Source of the DNA: Scenedesmus sp. PABB004
Taxonomy: Eukaryota
Assembly: GCA_014905635.1 (NCBI GenBank)
Contig: CM026547.1
Location: 3,534,001-3,598,000, forward strand
Direction of reading: 5' to 3'
DNA: 64,000 nucleotides
The notes beneath the pieces were generated by a model. It was not told the origin of the DNA, did not search any database, and saw only the letters and a list, made by a program, of their open reading frames with translations. Below, piece by piece: positions 39,802 through 58,200 of this stretch (position 1 is the stretch's first letter; each line of letters starts with the position of its first letter). The translations under genes and the position numbers were made by a program.

Positions 39802-41324
39802 ATGGCCGGCGCGGGGCAGGAGTCGTCCGCCGCGGCAGCGAGCTACCTGGAGGTCTGCCAGGAGCTGCGCTGCGCGCCGCTGGAGCCGTTCCTCGCGTGC
39901 CTGCGCGGCGCGAGCTCGGTCTGCCGCGTTGCTGCGCTGGAGGAGGAGCAGCTCTTCGCCGTCGCGTCGCTGCTGCCCTTCGCCCAGCTGGAGGAGCTGG
40001 ACCTGTCGGGCCTGGCGCTGGTGCGCCGCGTGCCGCGCCCTGCCGCGCGCCGCGCGCCGCGCCCAGCCCCCCCCCCCCCCCCAGACGGCCACGCGCCGCC
40101 GCCGCCCGCAGCCGCTGGACAGCTGGTGCACGCTGCTGGAGGCAGTCAGCAAGTGCCAGCTGCAGGTCCTCAGCGTCAAGGGCTGCGGCCTAGGCGCGCT
40201 GGGTGAGCGCGAGCGGCGGCGGGCCTCGCCGGCGGCGGCGCCGGCGCCGGCGCCCGCAGCTGACGCCCCAGCGCCGCCGCCGCCGCGGCGCAGGCGAGGC
40301 GGCGCAGGAGAGGCTCGCGGCCTGCCTGGGCGCGGCGCGGGCGGTCGTGGCCGACCTGAGCCAGAACGGGCTGGGCGACGGCTTTGCGGCGGCGCTCGCG
40401 GCGCAGCCGCTCATCTCGCGCTGCGACTCGCTCACCGTGCTGGACCTCAGCGAGAACGCGATCGGCGACGACGGCGTCACCTCGCTCGCCGCGGCGCTGG
40501 CGGGCGCCGGTGCGCCGCGCCCCGCACAGCGCCGCACGGCGCGCTCGCTGCTCCCCCGCGGCGCGGCGCGACTGCCGCCCCCCCCCCGCGCGCCGCCCGC
40601 CGCCCGCCGCGCGCCCAGGCGCGGGCTGCGCGCTGAAGCAGCTCGACCTGAGCTTCAACGCGCTCACCGACGGCGGCGCGTGCGCGCTCGCGGCGCTGCT
40701 CGGCCGCGTGCCGCTGCTCGCGCTCGAGCTGGAGGGCAACGCCGTGGGCGACGGGGGCGCCCGCGCGATCGCGACGGCGCTGCCGGGCGCGCGCGCGCTG
40801 CACCGCATCAACCTTAACCACAACGCCCTCGGCGCGGCGGCGCTGCCGGCGCTCGCCGACGCGCTGCGCCACGGCGCGGCGCTGCAGGAGCTCGCGGTCG
40901 CGGGCGCCGGCGGCGCCGACGGTGCCGAAGGCGTCGCGGCGCTGCTGCGCGCGGCTGCGTGCAGCCGGCACCTGCAGCTGCTGGACGTGCGCGGCCTGCA
41001 GCTGGCAGGCGTTGCGGTCGAGGCGGCGTGCGAGCTGCTGGCCAGCGCCGCACCGCTCGTCACGTTGCGCCTGGACGTCGCCAGCCGGGAGGCGGCCGAG
41101 GCGCTCGCGGCGGCGCTGCCGCGCAACGCCGGCCTTCAACACCTCATGATGGGCGGGCCCGTGCCAGAGCATGTGCTCTCCTTTGTCGCGGCGAGCCTCA
41201 GCTCCAACACGCTCGCGCGCGCGATGCAGGCGCCGGGCGGCGACGCTCCGGAGGGCCCCGGCCGCCACGACGGCAGCCCCGCCAAGGCCTCGCCGGCGGC
41301 CGGGGTCGGCGGCGCGGGCAGCCG

Positions 41325-41389
<65 letters not shown>

Positions 41390-43718
41390 TGCTGTGGTCG
41401 CCCAACAGCCGGCCCGCGTCGGCGGGCACGCTGCGCAGCTCACAGGGCTCGCTGCGCGTGCGCACGCCCGGCGGCGCGCGCGGCTCGCCTGCGCGCCCGG
41501 CCAGCGCGGGGCTGATGCGCACGACCACGCAGCAGGCCCGCCAGCTCAGCGCTTATGACCCGGCCGGCATCGCGGGCCTCGCCGGCGGCGGCGCCGCCAA
41601 CAAGGCCGCCGCTGTGTTCCGTCGCCACGACAGCGATGCGAGGTGCGCGGCAGCGCGGTGGCGCGGCGCGCCCGCCCGAGCACAGCGCCTCGGCTCCGCC
41701 GACCCCTGACCCAGGCCCGCGCCGCCCCGCCTCACCCCGCCGCGCGCGCCTGCAGCGGCTTCCTGGACGCCGAGGAGATGATGTCCGCCCTGCTGGACCT
41801 CGGCATGCTCGAGGGCATGAAGGCCCGGCAGCTGGGTGAGCGTGCTCCGCTGCCGCGCGCGCGCGCGCGGCGGCGCGCGCGCGCTGCCGCCGCGCCGGCC
41901 CCGCCGCGCCGCCGGCGCCGGCCCGAGCGCCGCGCACGCCGCCGCGCCGCGGCGCCGCCGCAGGCAAGTTCCTGAGCAGCACCATCCGCGAGGCCGACGT
42001 CGACCGTGACGGGCGCGTGAGCCTCGAGGAGTTTGTCAAGTACTACCAGCGCCTCGCGCAGTGAGCAGCCCCGGCTCGCGGCCGCTGCACGCGGCCACGC
42101 CGCGCGCAGCGCGCGCCCCCGCGCCGCCCGCCGGCAGCGCGCGTGCGCGCCGCCCACCCGCCCCGCCCCGGCCCGCCCGCCCGGCCGGCCCGCGGCGCGC
42201 AGCTACTACGCCGAGGCGGCGCGGCAGGGGCGCATCGTGGCGCGGCGCCGCGCGCCGGTGGTGCCGCTCGACGCGGCGAGCGACGACGCGCTGAAGCGCG
42301 GCTTCAGGGCGTACTGCCGCCTGCGGCTGGGCCAGGGGCGCCAGGTCGGCGCGAGCGTGCAGCACATGAACGCGGCGCAGTTCAACGCGATGGCCCGCGA
42401 CGCCGGCCTGCTGGAGCCGCAGGGTGGGCCCGCGCGTGGGCAGCCGGTGCGGCCGCCGCGGGCGCGCGCGCGCCCCGGCCGAGCCCGCCCCGCCGCGCCG
42501 CGCGCAGGCCCGCTGTCCCAGTGCGCCGTGGACATCATCTTTGCGCGCAGCAAGCCCCCGGGCAGCCGGCGGCTGGCGCTGCCCGAGTTTCTGCAGGCCC
42601 TGGCCTCGCTCGCCGACGAGGCGGGCGTGGGCTTTGACGCCGTCGCCGCCGCGGTGCTGGCGGGCCCGGCCGCGCCCGACCGCTGCGCTAGCCCCGCGCT
42701 CGACGAGCGCGGCGGGGCGGGCGGCGGCGGCGAGCGCCGCGCAGGCGCGCTGCCGCGCATCGCAGACCTGCTCGACACGCGCGTCGGCCCCGCGCTGCCG
42801 GGGCGGCGCGGACCGCTGAGCGCGAGCGCGGACTGGGCCGCGCCCGGCGCGGCGGCGCCGTGGAGCGGCGGCGGCGGCGCCGGCTCGCCCGTGGCGGCGT
42901 TCAAGGCGGCGCGCCTGGCCGGCGCGCGCGCGCCCGTGCCGCCGGCCGCGCCGGCGCGGCAGCCCGGCGGCGAGAAGCCCGCGGCCGGCCGCGCCGGCGG
43001 GCGCGACGCGGCGGTGTCAAACCCGCTGTACGAGTGCGAGGGCGAGGCCGACGGCCGCGGCTCGCGGGGCGGCGGGAGCAAGGCCCTGGAGGCGCGGCTG
43101 GAGGCGCTGGAGGGCAAGCTGGTCGCTGGTGCGCGTGGCAGCGACGGCGGCAGCGGCGGCGGCGGCATCGGCGCCGGCCCCGCCATGCCCGGCGACGTGA
43201 TGTCGCGCCTGCTGCTGGCGGAGGCCGCGGTGGCGGAGCAGCAGGCGCAGCTGGCCGCTGTGGTCGGAGAGAACGAGGCGCTGCGGGCCGTGGTGCAGCG
43301 CCTGGTCGAGGGGCTGGAGGCGCCGCAGCGCGCGAGCGCCGCGGAGGGCGCGGCCGCGGATGCAGCGGAGCTGCGGCAGCAGGTGCGCGCGGGGGCGCTG
43401 GCAGTGCGGCCGCCGTGCGCAGCAGCCGGGGCGCCTCGCTCACACCGCCGCCGCCCGCCCCAGGTCGCGGCGCTCGCAGCCGAGGTGGCGCAGCTGCGCG
43501 TGGGCAGCAGCGACGGCGGCGCGGAGGCCGGCGGTGGCGCCGCGCTCGCCGAGCTGGCGCGCCGCCTGGAGGACCGCCAGGCGCGCGCCGAGACGGCGAT
43601 CTACCAGGTGGCCCGCCAGGTGGACGTGCTCGACGCGCGGCTGCGCGACGAGCAGGAGAGCTCGCTCAAGGCGCTCGAGGCGATCCTGGCCAACGCGGCG
43701 GTCCCGTGCGCCGACTGA
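39802..43718 (+). CDS. Multidomain protein: RI-like leucine-rich repeats, EF-hand pair, p25alpha/TPPP-like domain, coiled coil
   Basis: LTVLDLSENAIGDDGVTSLA, LKQLDLSFNALTDGGACALA; EF loops DSDA-SGFLDAEE and DVDRDGRVSLEEF; LKRGFRAYC...MNAAQFNAMARDAGLL...VDIIFARSKPPGSRRLALPEFLQALASLA. Confidence 0.8.
41326..41388 (+). repeat. (CAG)n coding microsatellite, ~21 Gln
   Basis: Read directly; in frame in the LRR protein. Confidence 0.9.
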
Positions 43719-43861
43719 CGGGCAGCGCCGCCCTGCACTGACTGACTGACCGACGTGTGCGTTGCGGTGGGGGTTGGGGAGCGATCGCGGCCCAGCAGCG
43801 GCGCTCGGGATGCCTGCGCCGCCGACGCGCGGCGGCGGCACCGGCCGGCGGTTGCCGCAGC

Positions 43862-44369
43862 AGCGGCGCGGCGTGCGTGCTGGGGCTGGGCGCGCTCGGG
43901 GCGTCGGCCGGGCGCGCTGAGTCGGTGAGGTCAAGTCGGCCGGGCGGCCGCGCGGCAAGTGGCTGCTCCCTCGCCCGCGCAGGCCCCAAACCGCATCGCC
44001 CGAACAGCTGCCGCCCTGGCCGCGCTGCTCCGGGGCGCACTGACGCCGCGGCGCAGCGCATCGGCGGGCCCGGATCCCTGACAGCTCGCACACCTCGCCA
44101 GCCGCCCGCCCGGCGCCCGCGCGCGCGCGGCAGCAGCAGCCGCCCCCGGCCCGCCAGCAGCACGCCGCAGCCCGGGGCGTAGAGCGGGCGTGGCGCGCCA
44201 TGACTGCGACGGCAGAGGTCAACGACCCGCCCGCCGCGGCGGCGGCGGACGGCGAGCAGGTGCGGCGGCGGCGCGGGCGAGCGCGCGGCGGGCGCCGCTG
44301 CTGCCGGCGCGCGGCCCGCCGGCGGCTGCGCTGACCGCGCCGTGCTGCGCCCCCGCAACGGCGATGCAG
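43862..44369 (+). repeat. Direct duplication, copy A (promoter/5'UTR, exon 1, intron 1 of ValRS); partner 52032-52512
   Basis: Core ~43955-44285 is near-identical to ~52123-52453; flanks are more diverged but alignable up to the intron acceptor. Confidence 0.95.
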
Positions 44370-45717
44370 GGTGGTGACTCCAAGGAGCTGGACCCGGAGA
44401 AGGCGGCCAAGAAGGCGCGCGACGGCCGGCGCGCTGGCTCGCATCGGCCGGCGGCTGCAGCGCGCGGCAGCGCCCCCGCGCCTGCGCGAGCTGGCGCCGC
44501 TGCCGCGCTGCCGCGCAGGCGGCCAAGCTGGCCGAGAAGGAGGCCAAGAAGGCCAAGGCCGCCGCAAAGGCCGCCGCCGCGGCGGCCGCCGCCGCGGCCA
44601 AGGCGGAGGCCGGCGGCGCTGGCAATGAGAAGAAGGCCAACAAGAAGGCAGAGGCGGAGGCCAAGAAGGTGGGGGTCGAGTGCGGCGGCGCGGCGGCGCT
44701 GCGGCGGCGGCCACCGCGCGCCATGGGGTGGCTGACCCCTGTCGGCCGCGGCCGCGCCGCGCGCAGGCGGCCGAGGCGGCCGAGGTGGCGCACATCCTGG
44801 AGGAGCTGCGGCGCGTGCCGGCGGGCGACAAGAAGCCGCTGGACGGCGAGATGCACAAGGCCTACCACCCGCAGATGGTCGAGGCGGCGTGGTACGACTG
44901 GTGAGCGCGGCGACACAGCAGCGCAGCGACGGGCCCAGGGACGGGCCCTGGCGGCGGCGGCGGCGGCGGCGGCGGCGTCCCGCGCGCGCCGCGCCGCGCC
45001 GCGCCGAGCGCCCGCGCCGGGCCGCGCGCCGCGCCGGCGGCGGGCAGGTGGGAGCGCTGCGGGTTCTTCAAGCCCGACCCCGACAGCACCAAGCCGCCCT
45101 TTGCCATCGTCATACCCCCGCCCAACGTCACCGGCGCGCTGCACATCGGCCACGCGCTGACCAACGCGGTGCAGGTGCGGGGCCGCACCGCGCCGCGCTG
45201 CGCCGCGCCGCGCCGGGCGCGCACGTCCGCGCGCTGGCCCCGCTGCGCGGCGCGCTGGCCTGCGGCGCGCCCCGCCGCCGACCGGCCCGCTGCCCGTGCG
45301 GCGGCGTGGCGCAGGACACGATCGTGCGCTGGCGGCGCATGAGCGGCTACAACGTGCTGTGGGTGCCCGGCACCGACCACGCGGGCATCGCCACGCAGGC
45401 GCGCGCGCACGCGCGGGGCGGGCAGGCGCAGGCGGCCCGGCGGCCAGGCCCCTCTCCTCGTGCGCGGCGCGGCGCCGCGGCCCGCGCCGCACATGCCGCC
45501 GCGGCCCGCGCCGCACATGCCGCCGCCCCGCCCGCCGCCGCGCGGCGCGCCGCGCGCCCGGCGCTGCCCCCCGCAGAGCGTGGTGGAGAAGAAGCTGGCC
45601 AAGGAGCGTGGCGTGACGCGCCACGACCTGGGTGCGCGGGGGCCAGCAAAGCAGCAGGGCTACGCCCGCCAGAGCGCCGCGGGGTGCCCCACGGGCGGCA
45701 GCATGCAAAACACGCTT

Positions 45718-45766
<49 letters not shown>

Positions 45767-48700
45767 TTGCAGGGCGCGAGGCGTTCCTGGCCGAGGTGTT
45801 CAAGTGGGTCGACGAGTACGGCGGCCGCATCTGCGGCCAGCTGCGCCGCATGGGCAGCAGCGTCGACTGGGACCGCTGCGTGTTCACCATGGACGAGACG
45901 CGCTCGGTACGGCAGCAGCACCGCCCCGCCGCCGCCGCCGCCGCCGCCGCGCGCCGCCGCCGACCGCCCTGCTGCCCCCTCGGCCCCTGTCCCCGCCGCC
46001 GCCGCGGGCAGGCGGCGGTGCTGGAGGCGTTTGTGCGCATGCACGAGGCGGGCTGCGTGTACCGCGACAACCGCCTGGTCAACTGGGACGCGCGGCTGCT
46101 GACCGCGGTGAGCGACATCGAGGTCGACTACATCGACGTCCCCGGGCGCACCGCGCTCTCGGTGCCGGGCTTCGACCACGTGCGCGCACGCCTGGGCGCG
46201 CGCGCGGCGGGGCGTGCTCGACGCGCGGCGGGGCGGGGGCGTGCTGCGCCGCGTGGCGGGGGTGTGGGAGGCCCACGCCGCCCGCGGCTGCACGTGCGCA
46301 GCCGGTCGAGTTTGGCGTGCTGACGAGCTTTGCTTACCCGCTGGAGGGCGGCGAGGGCGAGATCGTCGTCGCGACGACGCGCCCGGAGACGATGCTCGGC
46401 GACACGGCGGTCGCGGTGCACCCGGACGACCCGCGGTGCGGCGCCGCGCCGCGGCGCGCGAGTGGTGGGCGCGGCGACCGACTCGTCGCTCCCACGCCTC
46501 AACACCTCACGCCTCGCGCCGCGGCGCCGCGCGCAGCTACGCGCACCTGCACGGCAAGCACGTGGTGCACCCCGTGAGCGGGCGGCGCATCCCGATCGTG
46601 TGCGACGCGGAGCTGGTGGACATGGCGTTTGGAACGGGTGCGCGTCCGCGCGCCCGCGCGCCCGCGCGCCCGCGCGCCCGCGCGCCCGCCGCCGCCGCGC
46701 GCGCCCCGCTGCGCGCCCGGCCGCCACGGGCCCCCCGCGGCTCGCTCACTCACCCCTGCCCCTCCCTCCCGCGCGCCGCCTCCTCCCGCGCTGCACCCGC
46801 CTCCCCCTGCCGCGCCCAGGCGCGGTGAAGATCACGCCCGCGCACGACCCCAACGACTTTGCCGTCGGCAAGCGCCACGGCCTGGAGTTCATCAACATCC
46901 TCGACGACAGCGGCGCCATCAACGACGCGGGCGGGCCGTTCAAGGGACAGCACCGCTTCAAGGCGCGCGCGCGCCGCGCCACGCCGCGCCCTCGCCCGCG
47001 CCGCGCCCGCGCCGCCGCCGACGTGCGGCAGGGCCTGCGCCTGCGTCCGCGCGCGGACGCGCACGACGAACGCCCACACGCGTGCCCTGGCCGGCCCGCG
47101 CCCGCGTGCCGCGCTGCGCAGGCGCGCGTGACGGTGGTGGACTTCCTCAAGTCTGCGGGCCTCTTCCGCGGCACGGCGGAGAACCCGATGCGCCTCGGCA
47201 TCAGCAGCCGCTCCAAGGACGTCATCGAGCCGCTGCTCAAGCCGCAGTGGTGGGTCGGCTGCGCCGACATGGCCGCGCGCAGCGTCGACGCCGTGCGCGA
47301 CGGCAGCCTCGAGATCATCCCCAAGGCGCGGCGGCGCGGCGCGGCGCGCGGGGGCCGCGCGGCGGGCAGCGCGTGGGGCGCTCGCGCGCGGGCGCTCGAC
47401 AGCCGCGCGGCCGCCCACGCCGCCCCGCCGCCGCCTCGGCCACGCACACGCGCACACCACGCGCACGCGCGCACACGCACACGCGCAGGACTTTGAGGCG
47501 ACCTGGTTCCGCTGGCTCGAGAACATCCGCGACTGGTGCATCAGCCGGCAGCTCTGGTGGGGCCACCGCATCCCAGCCTACTATGTGACGCTGGAGGGCG
47601 AGGCGCCCGAGGACGCGGGCGTGCCGGGGCGGCCGAGCGAGAAGGGCGACCGCTGGGTCGTCGGCCGCACGCAGGCGCGCGCGGCGGGCGGAGGGGCGCG
47701 CCGCGGCGCGTGGCAGGCGCGCCGGCGCGCGCGCAGGACGCGCCGCCGCGCTGACGGCCGGGCGGTCGGGCGCGCGCGCGCCGCGCGCGCAGGAGGACGC
47801 GGCGGCGGCGGCGGCGGCCAAGTTCCCGGGCCAGAAGTTCACACTGCACCAGGACGAGGACGTGCTGGACACCTGGTGCGCCTGGGGGAGAGGGGCGGGA
47901 CGGGGCACGAGGGGACCGGCAGGCCGCGCGCGCTGGCTTGCCCGGGCCGCCCTCCCAAACTCGCCGGCGTGTCAAACCCCCGCCGCCGCCGCGCGCCCCG
48001 TGCGCTCGCCGCGCCCCCCGCCCGCCCGCGCGCGCAGGTTCAGCAGCGGGCTCTTCCCCTTCAGTGTGATGGGCTGGCCGTCGGACACGCGCGACCTCGC
48101 CACGTTTTACCCCGGCGCCCTGCTCGAGACTGGGCACGACATCCTCTTCTTCTGGGTCGCCCGCATGGTCATGATGGGACTGCAGCTCACCGGCAAAGTG
48201 CCGTTCAAGCAGGCGCGGCGGCGCCGCGCCGCGCGGCACGCTGCGCGCTGCGACCGCGGCGCTCAGCGCGCGACGCACGCGCCGCGACCCGCGCTGACCC
48301 GCGCGTGCGCGCGCCTGCGCGGTGCCGCGCGGTGGCGCAGGTGTACCTTCACGCCATGGTGCGCGACGCGCACGGCAAGAAGATGAGCAAGAGCCTGGGC
48401 AACGTGATTGACCCGCTGCACGTCATCGAGGGCATCACGCTGAACGGCCTGCACGACACGCTCAAGGTGGGTGCCGTGGGTGGGTCGTGTGGGTGGGTGG
48501 GTGCGGGTGGGTGGGTGGGTGGGTGGGTGTGTGTAGAGGGGGGGGGGGTGTAGAGGGGGGGGGGGGCGCGAGGCACACGGCGCGGGACGACGCCGCGGCG
48601 CAGCGCGCGTGCGCGCGCGCGCTCACGCCGCGTGTCCCCCGCCGCGTGCGGCGCGCCTGGGCCCACCCCCAGGCGGGCAACCTCGACCCCAAGGAGGTGT

Positions 48701-50703
48701 CGCGCGCCAAGGACACGCAGCGCACCGACTTTCCCGACGGCATCGAGGAGTGCGGCACCGACGCGCTGCGCTTTGCGCTCGTGGCCTACACCACGCAGGC
48801 GCGCGCGCCCGGGCCCTGGGAGTGATGGCAGCCCCGGGGCAGGCGCTCCCCGCGCTGCAGCGCGCCGCCGCCGGCTCCCCCGCGCGCGCCGCCGCCGGCT
48901 CGCCCGCGCGCGCGCGAGCGGAGCCCCCGCGCGCGCCCAGCGAGCCACGCCCCTCCCCCCCCCCCCCCCCCCCCCCCGTCCTTCCCGTCCTCCCCCCAGG
49001 CGCGTGACATCAACCTGGACATCAAGCGTGTCGTCGCGTACCGCCACTGGTGCAACAAGCTCTGGAACGCGATCCGCTTTGCCATGATGAACCTGCCGCC
49101 AGGCTTCACGCCCCTCCCGCGCGCCGCGCTCGCGGACGCGCTGCCGGGGCGCCGCCCGCGGCGCGCTGGGTGCTGAGCCGCCTCAACGCGGCGGTGGAGG
49201 CGATCAACAAGGCGCGCGCGGGGGGGGGGGGGGGGGGGCTCCGGCCCCGCCGGCGCTGCTGCGCGCCGCCCGCCGCGCCCGCACCCCCTCCCGCCCGCCG
49301 CCTCACACCCGCCCAACACTCACGCCCCACCCACGCCCCACCCACGCCCCGCACCACCAGCCCCCCCCCCCCCCACACACACACACACTCACACACACTC
49401 ACACACCGCACACCCACCACCACCACCACCACCCCGGCCGCAGGCGATGGAGGCGTACGACTTTTCTGCCGCGACGCAGACGGCCTACGCGTGGTGGCAG
49501 TACGAGCTGTGTGACGTCTTCATCGAGCTGGTCAAGCCCGTCATGGCCCGCGACGACGGCGAGCCAGGTGGGCTGCAGCCCATGCCCGCCCGCCCGCCCG
49601 CACCCGCCCGCCCGCCACAAGCCCTGCGCAGCGCGGCACAACGCGCGCGCGCGCGCGCGCCGACGCCGACGCCGGCCCGGCCGCCCGGCCGCAGGCGCCG
49701 CGGCGGCCAAGGCGGCCACGCAGCAGGCGCTGTGGGCGTCGCTGGACGCGGGGCTGCGCCTGCTGCACCCCTTCATGCCCTTTGTCACGGAGGAGCTCTG
49801 GCAGCGCCTGCCCAAGACGCCCGACCAGGCGCGTGCGCCGCGCCGCGCACGCGGCGCGCGCAGGACCCGCGCCACCGCCGCGCTCGCCGCCCTCGCCGCG
49901 CTCCCACTCACTCACTCACTCGCTCACTCGCTCACTTGCTCACTCACTCACTCACTCACTCACACCCCCCCCCCCACCCACACACCCACACACACACACA
50001 CGCGGCCCCCCCCCCAGGCGGTCATCCCCAGCATCATGCTCGCGCCCTTCCCCACGCCCGAGCCGGGGTGGAGCCAGCCCGCGCTCGACGCCGACTACGC
50101 GGCCGCGCAGGCGGTCGTCGCGGCGCTGCGCAAGCTGCGCGCCGACTACGGGCTCACGCGGCAGCGCACCAAGGTCTTCCTCACCTGCGCCTCGCCCGAG
50201 CGCGGCGCGGCGCTGGAGGGCCTGGCGGGGGACATCGCGGCGCTCGCGAGCGCGAGCGAGGTGTCGCTGCTGCCGCCCAGCGCCGCGCCGCCGGCGGGGT
50301 GCAGCGTGGCGATCGTGGACGACGCGACGACCGCGCACGTGCTGCTCGCGGTGCGGCGCCGCGCTGGGGTCGCCGCGCCGCGCGCGCTGGGCTGGCCGCG
50401 CGCGGGCCCCGTGCCGCCTCGCGGCGCGTGCCCCGACCGCCGCCCGCGCGCCGCCGCCGCCACCCGCGCCAGGGCATCCTGGACCCCACGCTGGAGCTGG
50501 CCAAGCTGGAGAAGAAGGCGGCCGAGGCGGCGGGGCGCGTGGAGGCGGTGCGCAAGCGCATGGCGATGCCCAGCTACGCCGACAAGACGCCGCCCGCGGT
50601 GCGCGAGGACGACGCGGACAAGCTGGCCAGGGCCGAGGCGGAGGCGGCCGCCGTCGCGGCGCACATGGAGGAGATGCGGAAGATGATCGCCGCGCCGCAG
50701 TGA
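44200..50703 (+). CDS. VARS: Valine--tRNA ligase, cytosolic type (~23 exons; apparent frameshift at 49146-49149)
   Basis: [120 protein letters not shown] and [17 protein letters not shown]. Confidence 0.96.
49905..50000. repeat. Intronic (CACT)n and (CA)n microsatellites
   Basis: Read directly. Similar tracts: (GGGT)n at ~48477-48530 and poly-C/(CA)n at ~49361-49405. Confidence 0.85.
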
Positions 50704-50893
50704 GGCGGCCGGGGCGCGGGCGGCAGCGCGGCGCGGCGCGGCGCGGCGCGGCGCGGCGCGGCGTGCCGGCCGGCCGCTGCTGCGCGTGGGGAGGGAGGCA
50801 GGGCCGCTGCGCGCGCGCGGACCCGGACCCGGACCCCGGGCCGGCTGTGACCGAGTGCTGCGAGGCTCTCGAGGCGCCGGCAGGGCGCTGCCG

Positions 50894-50976
50894 TCACACC
50901 TCGCCCTCCGCCCGGATCTCTCTGATAAGCAGTCGGAACGCCTCGCCAGACTCGGCCGCGCCGCCGCCGCCACCGC

Positions 50977-51016
<40 letters not shown>

Positions 51017-51994
51017 GCCCTCCTCGCCGGCCGCTGCCGTGCCACTGCTGCTGCCGCCGCTGCCGCTGCTGCCCGCGTCGCTGCCGGGCCCGGCCTGCGC
51101 GTCGTGGTGCGCCGCCGCCGCGTGGACGGACACGCCCACGCCGATGACCTTGTCTGCCTGGAACTCCAGCTTGCGCTCCACCAGCTGCCCCTGGTATGTC
51201 AGCGCCAGCGCGTCGATGGGTATCGAGACCGTGCTCCACACGCCAGCCCTGCGCGCGCGCAAGCGCAAGCGCGCGGGTCGCGGCCGCGCAGCCGCACCGC
51301 GCCGCGCGCCGCGCCGCGCGGCGCGGCCGCCCGCCCGCCCGCGTGACGCGCGGCCGGCCGCGCGGCGCGCACCGCGTGCGGAACGGCGCCTGCCAGACGT
51401 CGCCGCCGGTGCCGGCGAGCGAGTCGACGCGCACGGAGGCGATGTAGGTCCGGCCGTCGCCCTTGACCGACCAGAGCAGGTGGCTGAGCCCCGCCAGGTC
51501 TGTGTAGTCGCCGATGGCCGTCACCTTTGACGACGCGACCGCGTAGCCGCCGCGCTTGAGCTCCGCGTCCGCCTCCTGCTCCAGCGTCACGCGCCCGCTG
51601 AACTCCGCCGCCTGCGGTGTGCGTGTGTGTGTGTGTGTGTGGGGGGGGGGGGTTGTCGGCGCGGGCGCGCGCGAGTGCGGGGAGGAGGCCTGCTCCGCCG
51701 CCGCCGACGACCTTCTCTGCCGCGTTGAACGTGAGCGCCGCGCTCGACTTGCCGCCAAAGTAGGCGTCCGTGAAGACGTGCCAGCGCTCCACCACCTCCG
51801 CGCTGTTGAAGGTGTAGAGCGTGACCGGCTTGGGCCCCAGCTGCACTGCGGACTCGGCGCCGGCAGCAGCAGCGGGCGTCGCCGCCGCGCTTGCCGCGCG
51901 CCGGCGGGGGGCCGCGCGCTGGCCTGCGTCGCGCACCTCCAGCCGTCAGGCCCTCTGCCACGGCCTTGGCCGACTTGATGAGGTTGCGCAGCAT
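50894..51994 (-). CDS. CIA30: Complex I assembly factor CIA30/NDUFAF1-family protein
   Basis: LYTFNSAEVVERWHVFTDAYFGGKSSAAL, AEFSGRV, RGGYA, VKGDGRTY, WSTVSIP...LTYQG and FRLLIREIRA. Confidence 0.85.
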
Positions 51995-52031
51995 CGCCGC
52001 CGGTGCCGGCAGCGGCGCCGAGCGGCGCGCG

Positions 52032-52512
52032 AGCGGCGCGGCGTGCGTGCTGGGGCTGGGCGCTCGGGCGTCGCCCCGGCGCGCGGCGTCGGCGAGTTCA
52101 AGTCGGCCGCGCGGCCGCGCTGGCAAGTGGCTGCTCCCTCGCCCGCGCAGGCCCCAAACCGCATCGCCCGAACAGCTGCCGCCCTGGCCGCGCTGCTCCG
52201 GGGCGCACTGACGCCGCGGCGCAGCGCATCGGCGGGCCCGGATCCCTGACAGCTCGCACACCTCGCCAGCCGCCCGCCCAGCGCCCGCCCGCGCGCGGCA
52301 GCAGCAGCCGCCCCCGGCCCGCCAGCAGCACGCCGCAGCCCGGGGCGTAGAGCGGGCGTGGCGCGCCATGACTGCGACGGCAGAGGTCAACGACCCGCCC
52401 GCCGCGGCGGCGGCGGACGGCGAGCAGGTGCGGCGGCGGCGCGGGCGAGCGCGCCGCGGGCGGCGCTGCTGCCGGCGCGCCGGCGGCTGACCGCCGCGCC
52501 GGCGGCGATCAG
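52032..52512 (+). repeat. Direct duplication, copy B (CIA30/TrpRS divergent promoter region, TrpRS exon 1, intron 1)
   Basis: Matches 43862-44369. Confidence 0.95.
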
Positions 52513-54512
52513 GTGATCACGCCCTGGGATGTGGCCGGCGGCGCGGACGGCAAGGTCGACTACAACAAGCTGCTGGAGCAGTTTGGCGTGTCGGCGCTGG
52601 GCGCGGACCTGGTGCAGCGGTGAGCGACGCTCCGCGCTCGGGCCGGCCGCGCGCGCCGGCAGCCGTCGGCGCCGCTCGCGGCCCACCGGCCGGGCGCCGT
52701 GCCGCGCCGCGCCGCAGCATGGAGCGGCTCACGGGGCGGCCGGCGCACCCGTTCCTCAAGCGCGGCATCATCTTTGCGCACCGCGACCTCCACGAAATCC
52801 TCGACTGCTACGAGCAGGGCCAGCCGTTCTACCTCTACACCGGACGCGTGCGCGCAGCATGCAGCAGCGCGCAGCAGCGCACAGCGCGCGGTGCGCCGCA
52901 CGCCACGCGGCTCGCACGCGCACGGCGGCCCCCCGCGCCGCGCCGCGCCGCAGGGCCCGTCGAGCGAGGCGCTGCACCTGGGCCACCTCGTGCCCATCAT
53001 GTTCACGCAGTGGCTGCAGGAGGTGTTTGACGTCCCGCTCGTCATCCAGCTCACGGACGACGAGAAGACGCTCTGGCGCGGCCTCGACCAGGACGAGGCG
53101 CGCCGACTCGCGCGCGAGGTGCGCCGCGCCGCGCCGCGCGCCGCGCCGACGCCCCCGCGGTTGCGCGGCCCCCGCGCCCGCGCTTGCTCGGCCGGCTCGC
53201 CCGGGAACGCCCCTCCGACTCGGCGGCGCGCGCAGAACTGCAAGGACATCATCGCGTGCGGGTTTGACGTCAACAAGACCTTCATCTTCAGCGACTACGA
53301 CTACGTCGGCGGCGCCTTCTACCGACACATCATCGACATACAGCGCTGCGTGTCAATGAACCAGGCGCGGCGCGGCGCGGCGCGGCGCGAGGCCGGGCGC
53401 GGGCGCGGGCGCGCAGAGGCTGCGCCGCCGCCGCGGCGCGCGGGCGCGGGCGGGCGCCGCCGCGGCGTTGCCGGGCGGGGCCGGCGTCCGACGCCCGACG
53501 CCCGCGCGCGCGCGCAGGTGCGCGGCATCTTTGGCCTCACGAGCGACGACAACATCGGCAAGATCGGCTTCCCCGCGGTGCAGGCGGCGCCGAGCTTCCC
53601 GGGCGTCTTCCCGCACATGTTTGGCGCGCGCCGCGACGTGCGCTGCCTCATCCCCTGCGCCATCGACCAGGACCCCTACTTCAGGTGGGCAGGCAGGCAG
53701 GGGGGCAGGCAGGGGGCAGGAGGGGCGGCAGGGAGAGGGGAGGGAGGGGTGGAGTTCAAGAGCGCGCGCGGGGTGGGCGCCGCGCCGCGGCGCCGCGCTG
53801 ACCGCCCGCCCGCGCGCCCGCCCGCCTGGGTCCGTGGCGCCAGGATGACGCGCGACGTCGCGCCGCGGCTGGGCTACGCCAAGCCGGCGCTCATCGAGGC
53901 GCGGTTCTTCCCGGCGCTGCAGGGCGAGAGCGGCAAGATGAGCGCGAGCGACCCCAACAGCGCCGTGTTTGTCAACGACACGCCCAAGCAGATCAAGGAC
54001 AAGGCGCGCCCCCGCCCGCCCGCCCGCCCGCCGCCGCGCCCGGCGCCCGCCGCGCCCGCCCCCCACACACACTCAAACACGCGCACACACACGCGCAATC
54101 ACGCGCGCGCGCAGATCAACAAGTACGCGTTCAGCGGCGGCCGCGTGACGGTCGAGGAGCACCGCCGCTTGGGCGCCAACCTCGACGTCGACGTGCCCTG
54201 GAAGTACCTCAACTTTTTCATGACCGACGACGACAAGCTGTCGCGCATCGGGCGCGACTACGGCGAGGGCCGCATGCTCACGGGTGGGTGGGCAGGGGTT
54301 TCCTTGCGCGCGCCCGCGCCGCGCCGCCTCGCCGGCAGCTCACGGCGAGCCGCCGGGCGGGCCGCGCCGCCGCAGGCGAGGTCAAGGCGGAGCTCATCAG
54401 CCTGCTGACCGACATCGTGGGCCGGCACCAGGCGGCGCGCGCGCAGGTGACGGAGGACGTGGTGGACGCGTTCATGGCGGTGCGGCCGATGGAGGCCGCG
54501 CTCGCGCGGTGA
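52368..54512 (+). CDS. WARS: Tryptophan--tRNA ligase, cytosolic type
   Basis: [76 protein letters not shown] and INKYAFSGG. Confidence 0.96.
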
Positions 54513-55275
54513 CGCGCGCCGGCGGCGGCCGGCGCGCTGCGGGCGCGGCGGGCGCGGCTGCTGCAGCGGCAGCGCGGCGCCCGCCCCCGCCACGCGTTTG
54601 CGGGTTGGGAGCGGCGGGGCCGGGCCCAGCTGGCCGCCGCGGGCGGGCACGGCGGGTCGGCGGCCGCCGCCGCCGCGCCGCGGCGCCGCAGCGCGCCGCG
54701 CGGGCCCGGGCGCGCCCGCGGCGCGGCGCCCGCGCCCGATCGACGCGCCGGGCGCGCGGTAGGCGGCGCGGTGGGGCGTTTCGGGCGCGGCTGGCAAACT
54801 TCGTTCAAACTGCGCAGTCGAACGCCGCGGGCCCGCGGTTGCGCCGCGCGGCCCCGCGCGCCCCGCCAGCGCGCGTGTGACCGCCCGCGCGCCGTCCCAC
54901 ACGCCCGCCCGCGCCTCCCGAGCCTTCGCCGGCGCCCAGCGAGTCGCGGTCGCTCGCCGGCCGCGCCGGTCGCTGAGACACAGCGCCGCCCGAGGCCCCC
55001 CGGCGCCGCGGTTCGGCGTCCCCGGCATTCCCCAGCGACGGTGGCAGGCCTGCGGCGCCCCCCGCCGCCCGCAGCGCGCCGCCCACCGGCCACTGCACCG
55101 GCCCAGCTCTCGCCGGCTACGGGCGCATCAGGGGCCGCGCCGGCGCCGCGGCGGCCGGCGGGAGCAGCCAGAAGCCAGCGCAGCGCACCCATGGCGGCCG
55201 CGCGGCCAGCCCCGGCCTGAGCGCGCGGCGGGCGAGGCGACGCCAGCTGCCGGCGCCCCGGGCGCGGCAGGCGCG

Positions 55276-58200
55276 ATGGGCAACGGGACGGTGGCCATGA
55301 AGGTGCGTCTGGCCCCGCCGCGCCGGACGGGCGGCCCAGCCGCGCCGCGCGGGCGGCGCCTGGGGCGGGGGGGCCCGCATCTCACCTGCTGCTGCCCCGG
55401 GCCGCGCAGACGGGGGCGTGGGACCCGGAGGAGGACGACCTGCTGTACTACTGGCAGGTGAGGCACCCCTGGCGCGCGCCGCGGGGTCAGGGGGCCGCCC
55501 CAGGCGCCCGCCAGCGTCCGTTGAGGCACGGCCAGCACGCCGCCCCGCGCTGGCCGCCGCCCCGTGGCCGCCGTGCGGTGGCGCGGCGGGCGGCCCCCCG
55601 CCGGCCGAGCGCGCCGGGCCAGCGCGCGCCGCCGCGCCGGGCGAGCGCGCGCCGCCGCGCCGGCCCGCCCCGCGCCGCGGCGGCGGTCAAGGTCCACCCG
55701 CCCCGGCCCCCGCGCGGCGCGGCGCCCCGCGCACGCCCCGAGGGCGGCAATCACCCCTGCGCCGCCGCCCGGCGTGCCGCGCGGGGCCGCGCCGCCGCCG
55801 CCGCCGCGCCCCCGCCTGGCCCTGCCCGCACGCTCCGTCGCGGCGCTGACCGCACGCCGCCGCCGCCGCCGCGCCCCGCCCGCAGAGCAAGGTCGGCAAC
55901 AAGTGGTCCGAGGTGGCCAAGCACATCCCGGGCCGCACGGGGCAGCAGTGCGCGCAGCGCTGGCGCCATAAGGTGCGGGCGCGCGCCGCGCCGCCCGCAC
56001 CCGGGGCTGCACGCCGCGCCGTGCCGCGGCAGCAGCCGGCGATCAGGCGGGGGCGGGGGCCTCGTGCGCGCGCTGCCCTGGCCGCGGCCAACCTGGTCCC
56101 TCCGCCTCCCCGTGCGCCCCCTGCCCCCTCCAGGTCAACCCCAACATCCGGCGCGACAAGTGGACGGAGGAGGAGGATGCAAAGCTCATCGAGCTGGTCA
56201 AGACCTTTGGCGTGGGCCGCTGGGCCGAGATCGCGCGCAACTGCAACGGCCGCACCGACCAGCAGTGCATGGGCCGCTGGCGCCGCCACCTCGACCCCAG
56301 CATCCGGCGGGTGAGGCGCGCCGCCGCCCCGCCGCGCCCCAGGCCCGGCCGCGCCGTGCACGCAGCGCAGCCGCGCTCGCGCCCGCCTCGCCCCGAGCCG
56401 ACCCGCCCGCGCGCTGTGCGCGCGCCTCTTGCAGGACTCGTGGTCGGCCGAGGAGGACGCCAAGCTGCGCCAGCTGCACGCGCAGTACGGCACGAGCTGG
56501 TCCCGCATCAGCAAGTGCCTCAAGGGCCGCACCTCGCAGCAGTGCCGCGCGCGCTGGCACCAGATCAACAACGGCCGCAGCAAGTCGGCCGGCGGCGGCG
56601 GCGGCGCGGGCAGCAGCAGCGGCAGCGGCGGCGCCAAGCAGGCCGCGGGCGGCGGCGCGCGGCGCGCGGGCGCGTCGGGCAAGCGCAAGACCGCGCGCCG
56701 GCGCGCAGAGCTCAGCGACAGCGAGGAGGAGGAGGAGGAGCCAGAGGTGGACGACGACGACGACGAGGGCGGCGAGGCTGCTGGCTATTACGACGGCGAC
56801 GAGCGCGGCGGCTCGCCCGCGCTGCACCTTGCGCACGCGGGCGCCGCCGCCGCCGCCGCCCCCCGCCGCCGCCGCGGCCGCGGGCAGCTGCGCGGACAGC
56901 CAGTTTGCGCTCGGCGTGGCCGCGGCGCAGTACAGCCTGGAGGCGCCCGCGCCCGGCGGGCCCGAGGCCGCGGCGCTACTGCAGCAGCAGCAGGCCCAGT
57001 GGGCCAACGCGCTGGGCGTGGCGCTGCCCGGCCACGCCGGCGCCGGCGCGGGGGGCCACGCCGGCGGCGACGTGGCCTACCACACCGACCAGGAGGACGA
57101 CGACGGCAGCGCCGACGCCGACGACAGCGACGGCAGCGCGGCCGCGCCGGCCGGCGCCGCGGGCCTGCGCCCCGCCGGCAGCGCGGCGCGCCCGCCGCTG
57201 CACCGCTTCCGGAGCATGCCGGCGCGCCATGGCGGGGGCGCTGCCGCCGCCGCGGGCACGCCCAGCGGCGACGGCAAGCCTGGGCGCAGCGCGAGCTGCA
57301 CCGTGCCCAAGTATGGCTGGGGCGGCGCGGCCGCGGCGGCGCTGGAGCAGGGCCAGTGGTCGCCCAGCCGGCTGCTGCTGTCGCCGCCGGCGACGCACAA
57401 GCGCGCCGACGCGCTGCGGCGCCGCGGCAGCGGCGTGGGCAGCAGCAGCAAGGGCGACCTGGACGACGAGGAGACGGCGGGTGAGCGCGGCCGCGCCGCC
57501 GCCGCCGACGCCGCGGCTGCCTGCGCGCCAGCTCGGCGCCCGCCCGCCGCGGCGCCGGCCCCGCCGCGCCGACCCCGACCCCGCCGCCGCGCCGCAGGCG
57601 CGGAGACGCTGCTCCAGATGGCCACGCTGCTGCGGCGCGAGTCGTGCGAGTTTGAGCCGCCCAGCCTGCGGCGCAGCGACTTCATCACCGCCTCGACGCC
57701 GCCCAAGCGCCCCGCGGGCGACCGCCCCGAGCCGCGCCAGGGTGACGAGCACAGCCCGAGCCCCTTCAAGCGCGCGCGCAGCTGCGCCGGCGGCGCCCTG
57801 TTTGGGCACGAGCCCGACGGCGGCGCTGGCGACGCGCTCACGCCGCGCGGCAGCCGCGGCGGCGCGCTGGTGGGGCAGCAGCTGGACTTTGGCGACGCCG
57901 CCGCGCCGCGCAGCGGCGGTCGCGCGCAGCAGCGCGCGCCCCCGGCCGAGGACGAGGAGGACGAGGAGGAGGAGGACGAGCAGGAGGAGGCGGCGGAGGA
58001 TGCGCGCCGCGCCGCCGAGCTGGACGAGGCGCGCGACATGCTGGGCCTCGGCGGCAGCAGCTTTGAGCAGGTGCTGCCTGACCCGCCGGCGCGCCCCAGC
58101 AACGCCAGCAGCCTCACCGCCGTGGCGGGGGACGGCGGCGCGGCGGCCGGCGGCGGCGTGGCCGCGGCCTTCCTCTCGCCGCCGCCGGTGACGCGCGTGC

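Follow-up and report, generated by a model that had tools for sequence, protein, structure and literature searches.

One 5′ module before two tRNA synthetase genes, and a missing GST-like domain of ValRS, in Scenedesmus sp. PABB004

Chimeric genes formed by partial duplication and intron-located recombination are known from exon shuffling and from promoter or first-exon capture, with Drosophila jingwei as an example of the type. Here, we describe a comparable arrangement in a 64,000-nt stretch of Scenedesmus sp. PABB004 (assembly GCA_014905635.1, contig CM026547.1, positions 3,534,001–3,598,000, forward strand; hereafter, the window), in which the neighboring genes for valyl- and tryptophanyl-tRNA synthetase (ValRS and TrpRS) begin with the same exon. 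As in described chimeric genes, the 5′ module is retained at the donor, and a duplicate of it, comprising the promoter, the first exon, and some of intron 1, appears to be joined, in phase and through an intron, to the body of another gene. The locus differs in that donor and recipient are essential, neighboring class I tRNA synthetases of unrelated specificity. The recipient, moreover, appears to be the gene at the ancestral locus rather than a spare duplicate, to have lost its own promoter and a whole domain, and to have received a copy of only ~0.5 kb. The interpretation we favor as probable is that the TrpRS 5′ module was copied upstream, replaced the ValRS promoter together with an N-terminal GST-like domain, and is used by ValRS. 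No report of two synthetases with a common first exon appeared in literature listings and the opening parts of abstracts.

The shared 5′ module and its origin

The module is a direct repeat with two copies 8168 bp apart, one before ValRS (43862–44309, copy A) and the other before TrpRS (52030–52477, copy B). A repeat search retrieved it as a 300-nt pair with 99% identity at that spacing. In a gapped alignment, the core (43954–44309 vs 52122–52477) comprises 356 ungapped columns with four mismatches (44112, 44121, 44287, and 44295), distributed as two in 246 upstream positions, none in the 60-nt exon, and two in the first 50 nt of the intron. A first-pass annotation, made from the sequence alone, had reported identical 60-nt ATG exons (44200–44259 and 52368–52427) preceded by ~250 bp of near-identical DNA at ~8.17 kb spacing, all of which is borne out; the exons also share one translation. 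Divergence rises outside the core. The left flank (43862–43953) shows seven mismatches and four gap events over 95 columns, and the right part (44310–44369) is indel-rich. Counted as events, the flank (11 in 93 columns) departs clearly from the core (4 in 356; Fisher p 1.2e-5), in agreement with the contrast between core and flanks noted earlier. Using copy B as a blastn query against the window, only one other copy was found (43817–44339, 92.2% over 524 columns). The remaining matches spanned 19–186 columns, and those longer than 30 columns were at most 88% identical.

The two first introns had also been described as homologous, which holds for their beginnings. Homology is secure to 44309 (~50 nt) and plausible to about 44340, given where the blastn match ends and the CTGAC that both introns carry, a motif found near the acceptor in only 6 of 30 introns. 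The proposed likeness of the acceptor ends, cggcgat(g)cag, is at background: it scored 13.5 against a mean of 10.2 (sd 3.0), and 15% of 650 unrelated intron 3′-end pairs scored as high. Exon 2 nevertheless starts at the junctions named in that annotation, 44370 for ValRS and 52513 for TrpRS.

Comparison with relatives indicates which copy came first. The downstream gene was assigned to TrpRS by Pfam tRNA-synt_1b (PF00579) and, as in class Ic enzymes of this specificity, a short acidic leader precedes the V-I-T-P-W motif. TrpRS proteins of related algae begin with a short acidic leader that opens with M-T/A and ends in G-E/D-Q immediately ahead of VITPWDV; the Tetradesmus protein reads MTAEEQQQATPPAEEAAAAESGEQ. 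Fourteen TrpRS N-termini were tried, of which 12 could be delimited and two lacked the motif. The exon peptide matched the Tetradesmus N-terminus at 12 of 24 positions (z 4.0–4.4) and, against 7 of the 12 delimited N-termini, outscored 98% or more of its own shuffles, with z as high as 4.9. Against 13 ValRS segments, consisting of N-termini and pre-linker stretches, the lowest shuffle fraction was 0.037. No ATG occurs in 51995–52367. Because the exon peptide is TrpRS-like, shows no likeness to ValRS, and supplies the only ATG available to TrpRS, we take the exon to be native to TrpRS and copy B to be the original, as first proposed. ValRS as the donor was rejected on ortholog N-termini. A segment that belongs to the donor gene of related species but not to their recipient gene fits the pattern of 5′ module capture, and these comparisons indicate transfer from TrpRS to ValRS. 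In its short acidic leader and the G-E/D-Q before VITPWDV, the presumed donor resembles the cytoplasmic TrpRS of other Sphaeropleales (Tetradesmus, Chromochloris, and Monoraphidium), and nothing about it is unusual among them.

The core itself resembles a product of concerted evolution by gene conversion, being a sharply bounded 356-nt tract that is 1.1% different inside an older duplication whose flank is about 12% different. Unlike typical concerted evolution, only two copies are involved, and conversion and selection on a shared promoter give the same pattern of core and flanks in what is a comparison of two sequences only. Purifying selection holding 356 nt at 99% identity, synonymous sites and intron included, is judged unlikely. 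Gene conversion within an older duplication fits better, and later conversion between the copies, possibly with promoter selection in addition, would best explain a near-identical core beside diverged flanks.

Inverted repeats lie near both ends of each copy, namely a perfect 13-nt pair at copy A (43857–43869/44292–44304) and a 27-nt pair at 81% at copy B (52005–52031/52450–52476). Comparable pairs number 26–28 per ~600-bp stretch of this DNA, and a mobile element defined by terminal inverted repeats was rejected on that ground. Such repeats could have favored template switching.

The N-terminal domain of ValRS

The body of the gene that follows copy A is that of a ValRS. The ValRS and TrpRS gene models are ortholog-guided. 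Pfam families tRNA-synt_1, Anticodon_1, and Val_tRNA-synt_C matched in 8 of 11 frames of the ValRS region, and by tblastn these domains are colinear with residues 240–1300 of the Chromochloris protein, as expected of a class Ia ValRS. It shares its catalytic body, lysine-rich linker, anticodon-binding domain, and C-terminal arm with the GST-type cytosolic ValRS of chlorophytes and vertebrates (e.g., Chromochloris Cz05g20150 and Tetradesmus OEZ86_011841). Unlike them, it lacks the N-terminal GST-like domain of ~230 residues and has in its place 20 residues that appear to derive from TrpRS. In mammals, the GST-like domain of ValRS is said to tether the enzyme to elongation factor 1.

The GST-bearing form is widespread. 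Searching with the ValRS N-terminal exon returned two proteins only, one of which was the Chromochloris ValRS (1300 aa, with GST Pfam families). With the first 420 residues of that protein as the query, 22 of the 30 best rows carried a GST Pfam family. The GST-bearing ValRS rows included Chromochloris, Tetradesmus (1288 aa), Volvox, Chlorella, Micractinium, and Chlamydomonas incerta, at lengths of 1288–1301 aa, and vertebrate ValRS with the GST family stood lower in the same list. This distribution indicates that the GST-type architecture is general and ancestral. The first-pass annotation had proposed looking at ValRS N-termini in relatives and had overlooked that these proteins, at about 1290–1300 aa, start with a GST-like domain.

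The window ValRS becomes colinear with its Chromochloris counterpart from residue 240 onward only, and exon 2 aligns with DEDELDPDKAAKK in the internal linker of the latter. The lysine/alanine-rich linker of the GST type is present, with exons 2–3 aligning to the linkers of P0122, P0123, and P0136. The GST-like domain (PF00043/PF13410/PF14497) was not found in the 64-kb window. Searching the window by tblastn with eight ortholog N-termini gave a best E of 0.16, and a GST profile built from 16 orthologs gave a best E of 0.69 against 793 six-frame open reading frames (ORFs). Three control proteins with partial GST domains were recovered by this profile at E 5.5e-22, 2.9e-25, and 2.9e-31. An arrangement in which GST exons lie further upstream, with the module inside a ValRS intron, was rejected, as another gene ends at 43718 and the window holds no GST signal.

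Almost all of the ~650 bp in front of exon 2 is the copy of TrpRS-type DNA. Since the upstream gene ends at 43718, the copy fills the space, and no GST signal is present, the module appears to have replaced the ancestral ValRS promoter and the GST-like domain. The earlier proposal that ValRS captured the TrpRS 5′ module was correct in placing the secondary copy at ValRS. What it overlooked is that no mere addition of a cassette took place; the comparison with orthologs points to a replacement, in which the module stands where a promoter and ~230 aa of GST-like domain used to be.

Use of the module by ValRS

Judging from the signals around the junction, ValRS probably uses the TrpRS-derived exon. 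The donor cag/GTGCGGCG and the acceptor GCAG/g (slash, splice boundary) match those of other introns in both genes. Exon 1 is 60 nt long, and both its end and the start of exon 2 are in phase 0, meaning that a splice from 44259 to 44370 is in frame, and the ValRS frame is open through exons 1–18. With intron 1 retained, the frame of exon 1 stops at 44332–44334. No ATG occurs in 43811–44199, which makes 44200 the first ATG for any start site within the copy. Copy A is also 99% identical to the promoter that must serve TrpRS.

Between the stop of the upstream gene and exon 1, a single ATG occurs; it begins an arginine/glycine-rich frame of 37 codons (43810–43920, stop at 43918–43920). This would be an upstream ORF only if ValRS transcription starts before 43810.

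The following history accounts for these features. A local partial duplication would have copied about 450–500 bp of the TrpRS 5′ end to a site 8.17 kb upstream. This piece would have included all of the promoter region between CIA30 and TrpRS, the 60-nt exon with the start codon, and no less than the first 50–80 nt of intron 1. The new copy would have ended inside a ValRS intron, just before the exon encoding the lysine-rich linker, and the ancestral ValRS promoter and the exons of the N-terminal GST-like domain would have been lost. Most likely, a TrpRS-type promoter would then drive ValRS, and translation would begin at the TrpRS-derived ATG at 44200, with in-frame splicing from 44259 to 44370 giving a GST-less ValRS of ~1089 aa whose first 20 residues are common to TrpRS. 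Thereafter, gene conversion between copies A and B, perhaps together with promoter selection, would have kept the core near-identical.

Several points weigh against this history. A GST-bearing ValRS, or a separate gene for a GST-domain protein, may exist elsewhere in the genome. The frameshift described below, if real, could mean a dying gene and an irrelevant chimera. If the 99% identity of the core is due to gene conversion, it says nothing about function. The in-frame ATG at 44364, 6 nt before exon 2, could start a shorter transcript that begins inside the copy downstream of 44200, and ATG is rare enough in this DNA for its presence there to be mildly suspicious. This last point leads to an unlikely alternative: that the copy acts as a promoter only, with ValRS transcripts starting within or after exon 1 or keeping the intron and with translation from 44364, such that regulation is common to both genes and the peptide is not. 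In DNA of ~10% A and ~10% T, an ATG that shares the frame of exon 2 carries some weight, and no TrpRS origin is demonstrable for the final ~30 nt of the intron. Against it, TrpRS has no other ATG and must start upstream of exon 1; the equivalent start in copy A, whose core is 99% identical, would include the ATG at 44200. If unspliced, that ATG opens a 45-codon upstream frame ending at 44334 that would hinder initiation at 44364, and the splice signals are intact. Less probable still is a decaying chimeric gene, with a real frameshift near 49150 and a normal GST-bearing ValRS at work elsewhere. The single frame break (between 49149 and 49152) and the absence of the GST domain would agree with decay. 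The break, which is either an assembly indel or a very young lesion, adjoins a G4 run, and in DNA of 80% GC such sites are where assembly indels usually arise. Behind it, 294 codons are open and 75% identical to Tetradesmus (218/290), and on the strength of this open, conserved sequence we regard the frameshift as a probable assembly indel. Apart from this break, the 23 exons are all open, with 879 of 1091 columns identical to Tetradesmus, and the ancestral neighborhood of CIA30, TrpRS, and Myb has been kept.

Two further explanations concern the repeat as a whole and are both very improbable. Very GC-rich, low-complexity DNA assembles poorly, and the repeat might be the product of a mis-join or a duplicated contig end. 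Its copies, however, differ by four core substitutions and by many substitutions and indels in both flanks, those flanks each continue into a unique gene of their own, and the 8.17 kb separating the copies (ValRS and CIA30) is not duplicated. Independent insertion of a promoter cassette, mobile or dispersed, ahead of each of the two genes would be in keeping with the short inverted repeats near both ends of each copy. That idea is hard to reconcile with the presence of only two copies in 64 kb, with an exon homologous to TrpRS N-termini of other genera, with the general abundance of inverted pairs (26–28 per ~600 bp), and with the absence of RNA-family or tRNA matches. Copying of the TrpRS module into the ValRS locus, followed by its use there, accordingly remains the reading we favor, at the moderate strength given above. 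A bolder version, which we put forward tentatively and hold to be rather doubtful, is that one promoter-plus-leader cassette, held identical by ongoing gene conversion, co-regulates ValRS and TrpRS, and that ValRS traded its GST-like, elongation-factor-tethering domain for a 20-residue leader. If true, an essential single-copy gene, and not a spare duplicate, would have undergone a natural exchange of a domain for a leader.

Genomic setting and significance

The features of the locus are collected in Table 1.

Table 1. Coordinates of the features at the ValRS–TrpRS locus, numbered from the first letter of the window; a slash marks a splice boundary.
Feature	Position	Strand	Remarks
Upstream gene, last long open frame	42021–43718	+	Weak p25-alpha match, coiled-coil tail; stop 43716–43718
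Copy A, diverged left flank	43862–43953	+	About 88% to 52030–52121; weak blastn likeness back to 43817
Copy A, near-identical core	43954–44309	+	246 nt of upstream/5′UTR DNA, exon 1, first 50 nt of intron 1
ValRS gene model	44200–50703	+	23 exons, 1089 residues with X at one break; 879/1091 columns identical to Tetradesmus (81%)
ValRS exon 1, apparently TrpRS-derived	44200–44259	+	ATG + 19 codons; first ATG after 43810
ValRS intron 1	44260–44369	+	110 nt, cag/GTGCGGCG ... GATGCAG/ggt; CTGAC at 44331
Alternative ValRS start ATG	44364–44366	+	Shares the frame of exon 2; lies within the 3′ end of intron 1
ValRS exon 2	44370–44414	+	Homologous to internal linker of GST-type ValRS (Chromochloris residues 240–252)
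ValRS intron 2	44415–44518	+	GC-AG, aag/GCGCGCGA ... GCGCAG/gcg
GC donors	44415, 45399, 46963, 47326, 47675, 48213, 48799, 49212, 49829, 53365, 54004	+	Span 44415–54114
Apparent frameshift, ValRS exon 19	49146–49151	+	2 nt vs one codon in orthologs, beside G4 run; break between 49149 and 49152
CIA30-domain gene	50897–51994	-	Between ValRS and TrpRS; putative ATG 51994–51992
Copy B	52030–52477	+	Intergenic/promoter DNA, TrpRS exon 1, first 50 nt of intron 1; apparently the original copy
TrpRS gene model	52368–54512	+	9 exons, 407 aa, unbroken; 359/411 columns identical to Tetradesmus TrpRS (87%)
TrpRS exon 1	52368–52427	+	Only ATG available to TrpRS
TrpRS intron 1	52428–52512	+	85 nt, cag/GTGCGGCG ... 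GATCAG/gtg; CTGAC at 52487

The G+C content is 75–83% across all 32 two-kb segments of the window, which is extreme for a eukaryote. Stop-free stretches occur in all six frames, including one of 946 aa antisense to ValRS, and with open frames everywhere ORF length is worthless as gene evidence here. The exons around the duplication most resemble those of green algae of the Sphaeropleales, with one TrpRS exon showing 98% identity to that of Chromochloris and 96% to that of Tetradesmus.

Both copies sit tightly between genes. Only ~100–145 bp separate the stop of the upstream gene from copy A, and the putative ATG of the CIA30 gene lies ~35 bp from the left edge of copy B, which therefore spans the divergent intergenic region. 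A Myb gene follows TrpRS. The order ValRS, CIA30-like gene (opposite strand), TrpRS, Myb (44200–56500) appears conserved, as read from locus tags only. The ValRS and TrpRS tags are four apart in Tetradesmus (OEZ86_011841/011845) and two apart in Sanguina (WDW36_002653/002655), and in a EukProt relative gene10346 (ValRS) and gene10348 (a fused TrpRS+Myb model) are two gene numbers apart; the ValRS model of that relative begins inside the GST-C part. This recurring order of ValRS, one or a few genes, and TrpRS suggests that donor and recipient are old neighbors, which makes a local template switch or unequal exchange plausible.

The first-pass annotation overlooked the apparent ValRS frameshift and also the GC donor of ValRS intron 2, where no GT occurs between 44375 and 44518. 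GC in place of GT was observed at 11 of the 30 ortholog-defined introns of ValRS and TrpRS, in each case as (A/C)AG/GCGCG. GC donors usually make up roughly 1% in eukaryotes. The share here is far above that and may reflect a genome-wide shift of the donor consensus in a genome of 79% GC. No published report of a high GC-donor share in green algae appeared in literature listings and the beginnings of abstracts.

Long trinucleotide runs were seen in a ValRS intron ((GCC)n, 45720–45770) and between ValRS and the CIA30-like gene ((GCT)n, 50960–51010), and a poly-Q-coding run (41290–41360) lies in the upstream leucine-rich-repeat gene. Rfam and tRNA scans of 43000–55000 gave no matches. In a freshwater metagenome run (X1), short contigs of 100–207 nt at depth 2–4 matched the window with 0–2 differences at 45966–46172, 46796–46958, 48305–48467, and 51718–51817, which suggests that the same or a nearly identical alga is present in that sample at low depth. 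The run holds 7% of the window's words, and its other matching pieces are mostly short fits of unrelated GC-rich DNA. Among the matches listed (8 of 410), none from X1 lay at the frameshift site or in a copy of the module. Metagenome contigs held no exact match to a 34-nt exon-1 pattern, and the ValRS N-terminal exon gave 594 pattern stretches there, none of which was confirmed by tblastn.

No precedent for the locus, and no statement on GST domains of algal ValRS, appeared in the literature as listed and in the portions of text available, including those of PMC7373986. From the sequences compared, the locus appears unusual in joining two neighboring essential synthetases, in having the gene at the ancestral locus as the recipient, and in the exchange of a whole appended domain for a 20-residue leader. 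The identity pattern of core and flank offers a small, well-bounded system in which to study gene conversion under extreme GC richness. Should the chimeric ValRS be expressed, the locus would provide a clean, datable case of natural promoter and first-exon replacement at an essential housekeeping gene, and would allow a natural test of whether identical regulation is of benefit to two synthetases. In such a case, the gene would have survived the loss of an entire appended domain, and at least one green alga would be able to dispense with the GST-like appendage of its ValRS.

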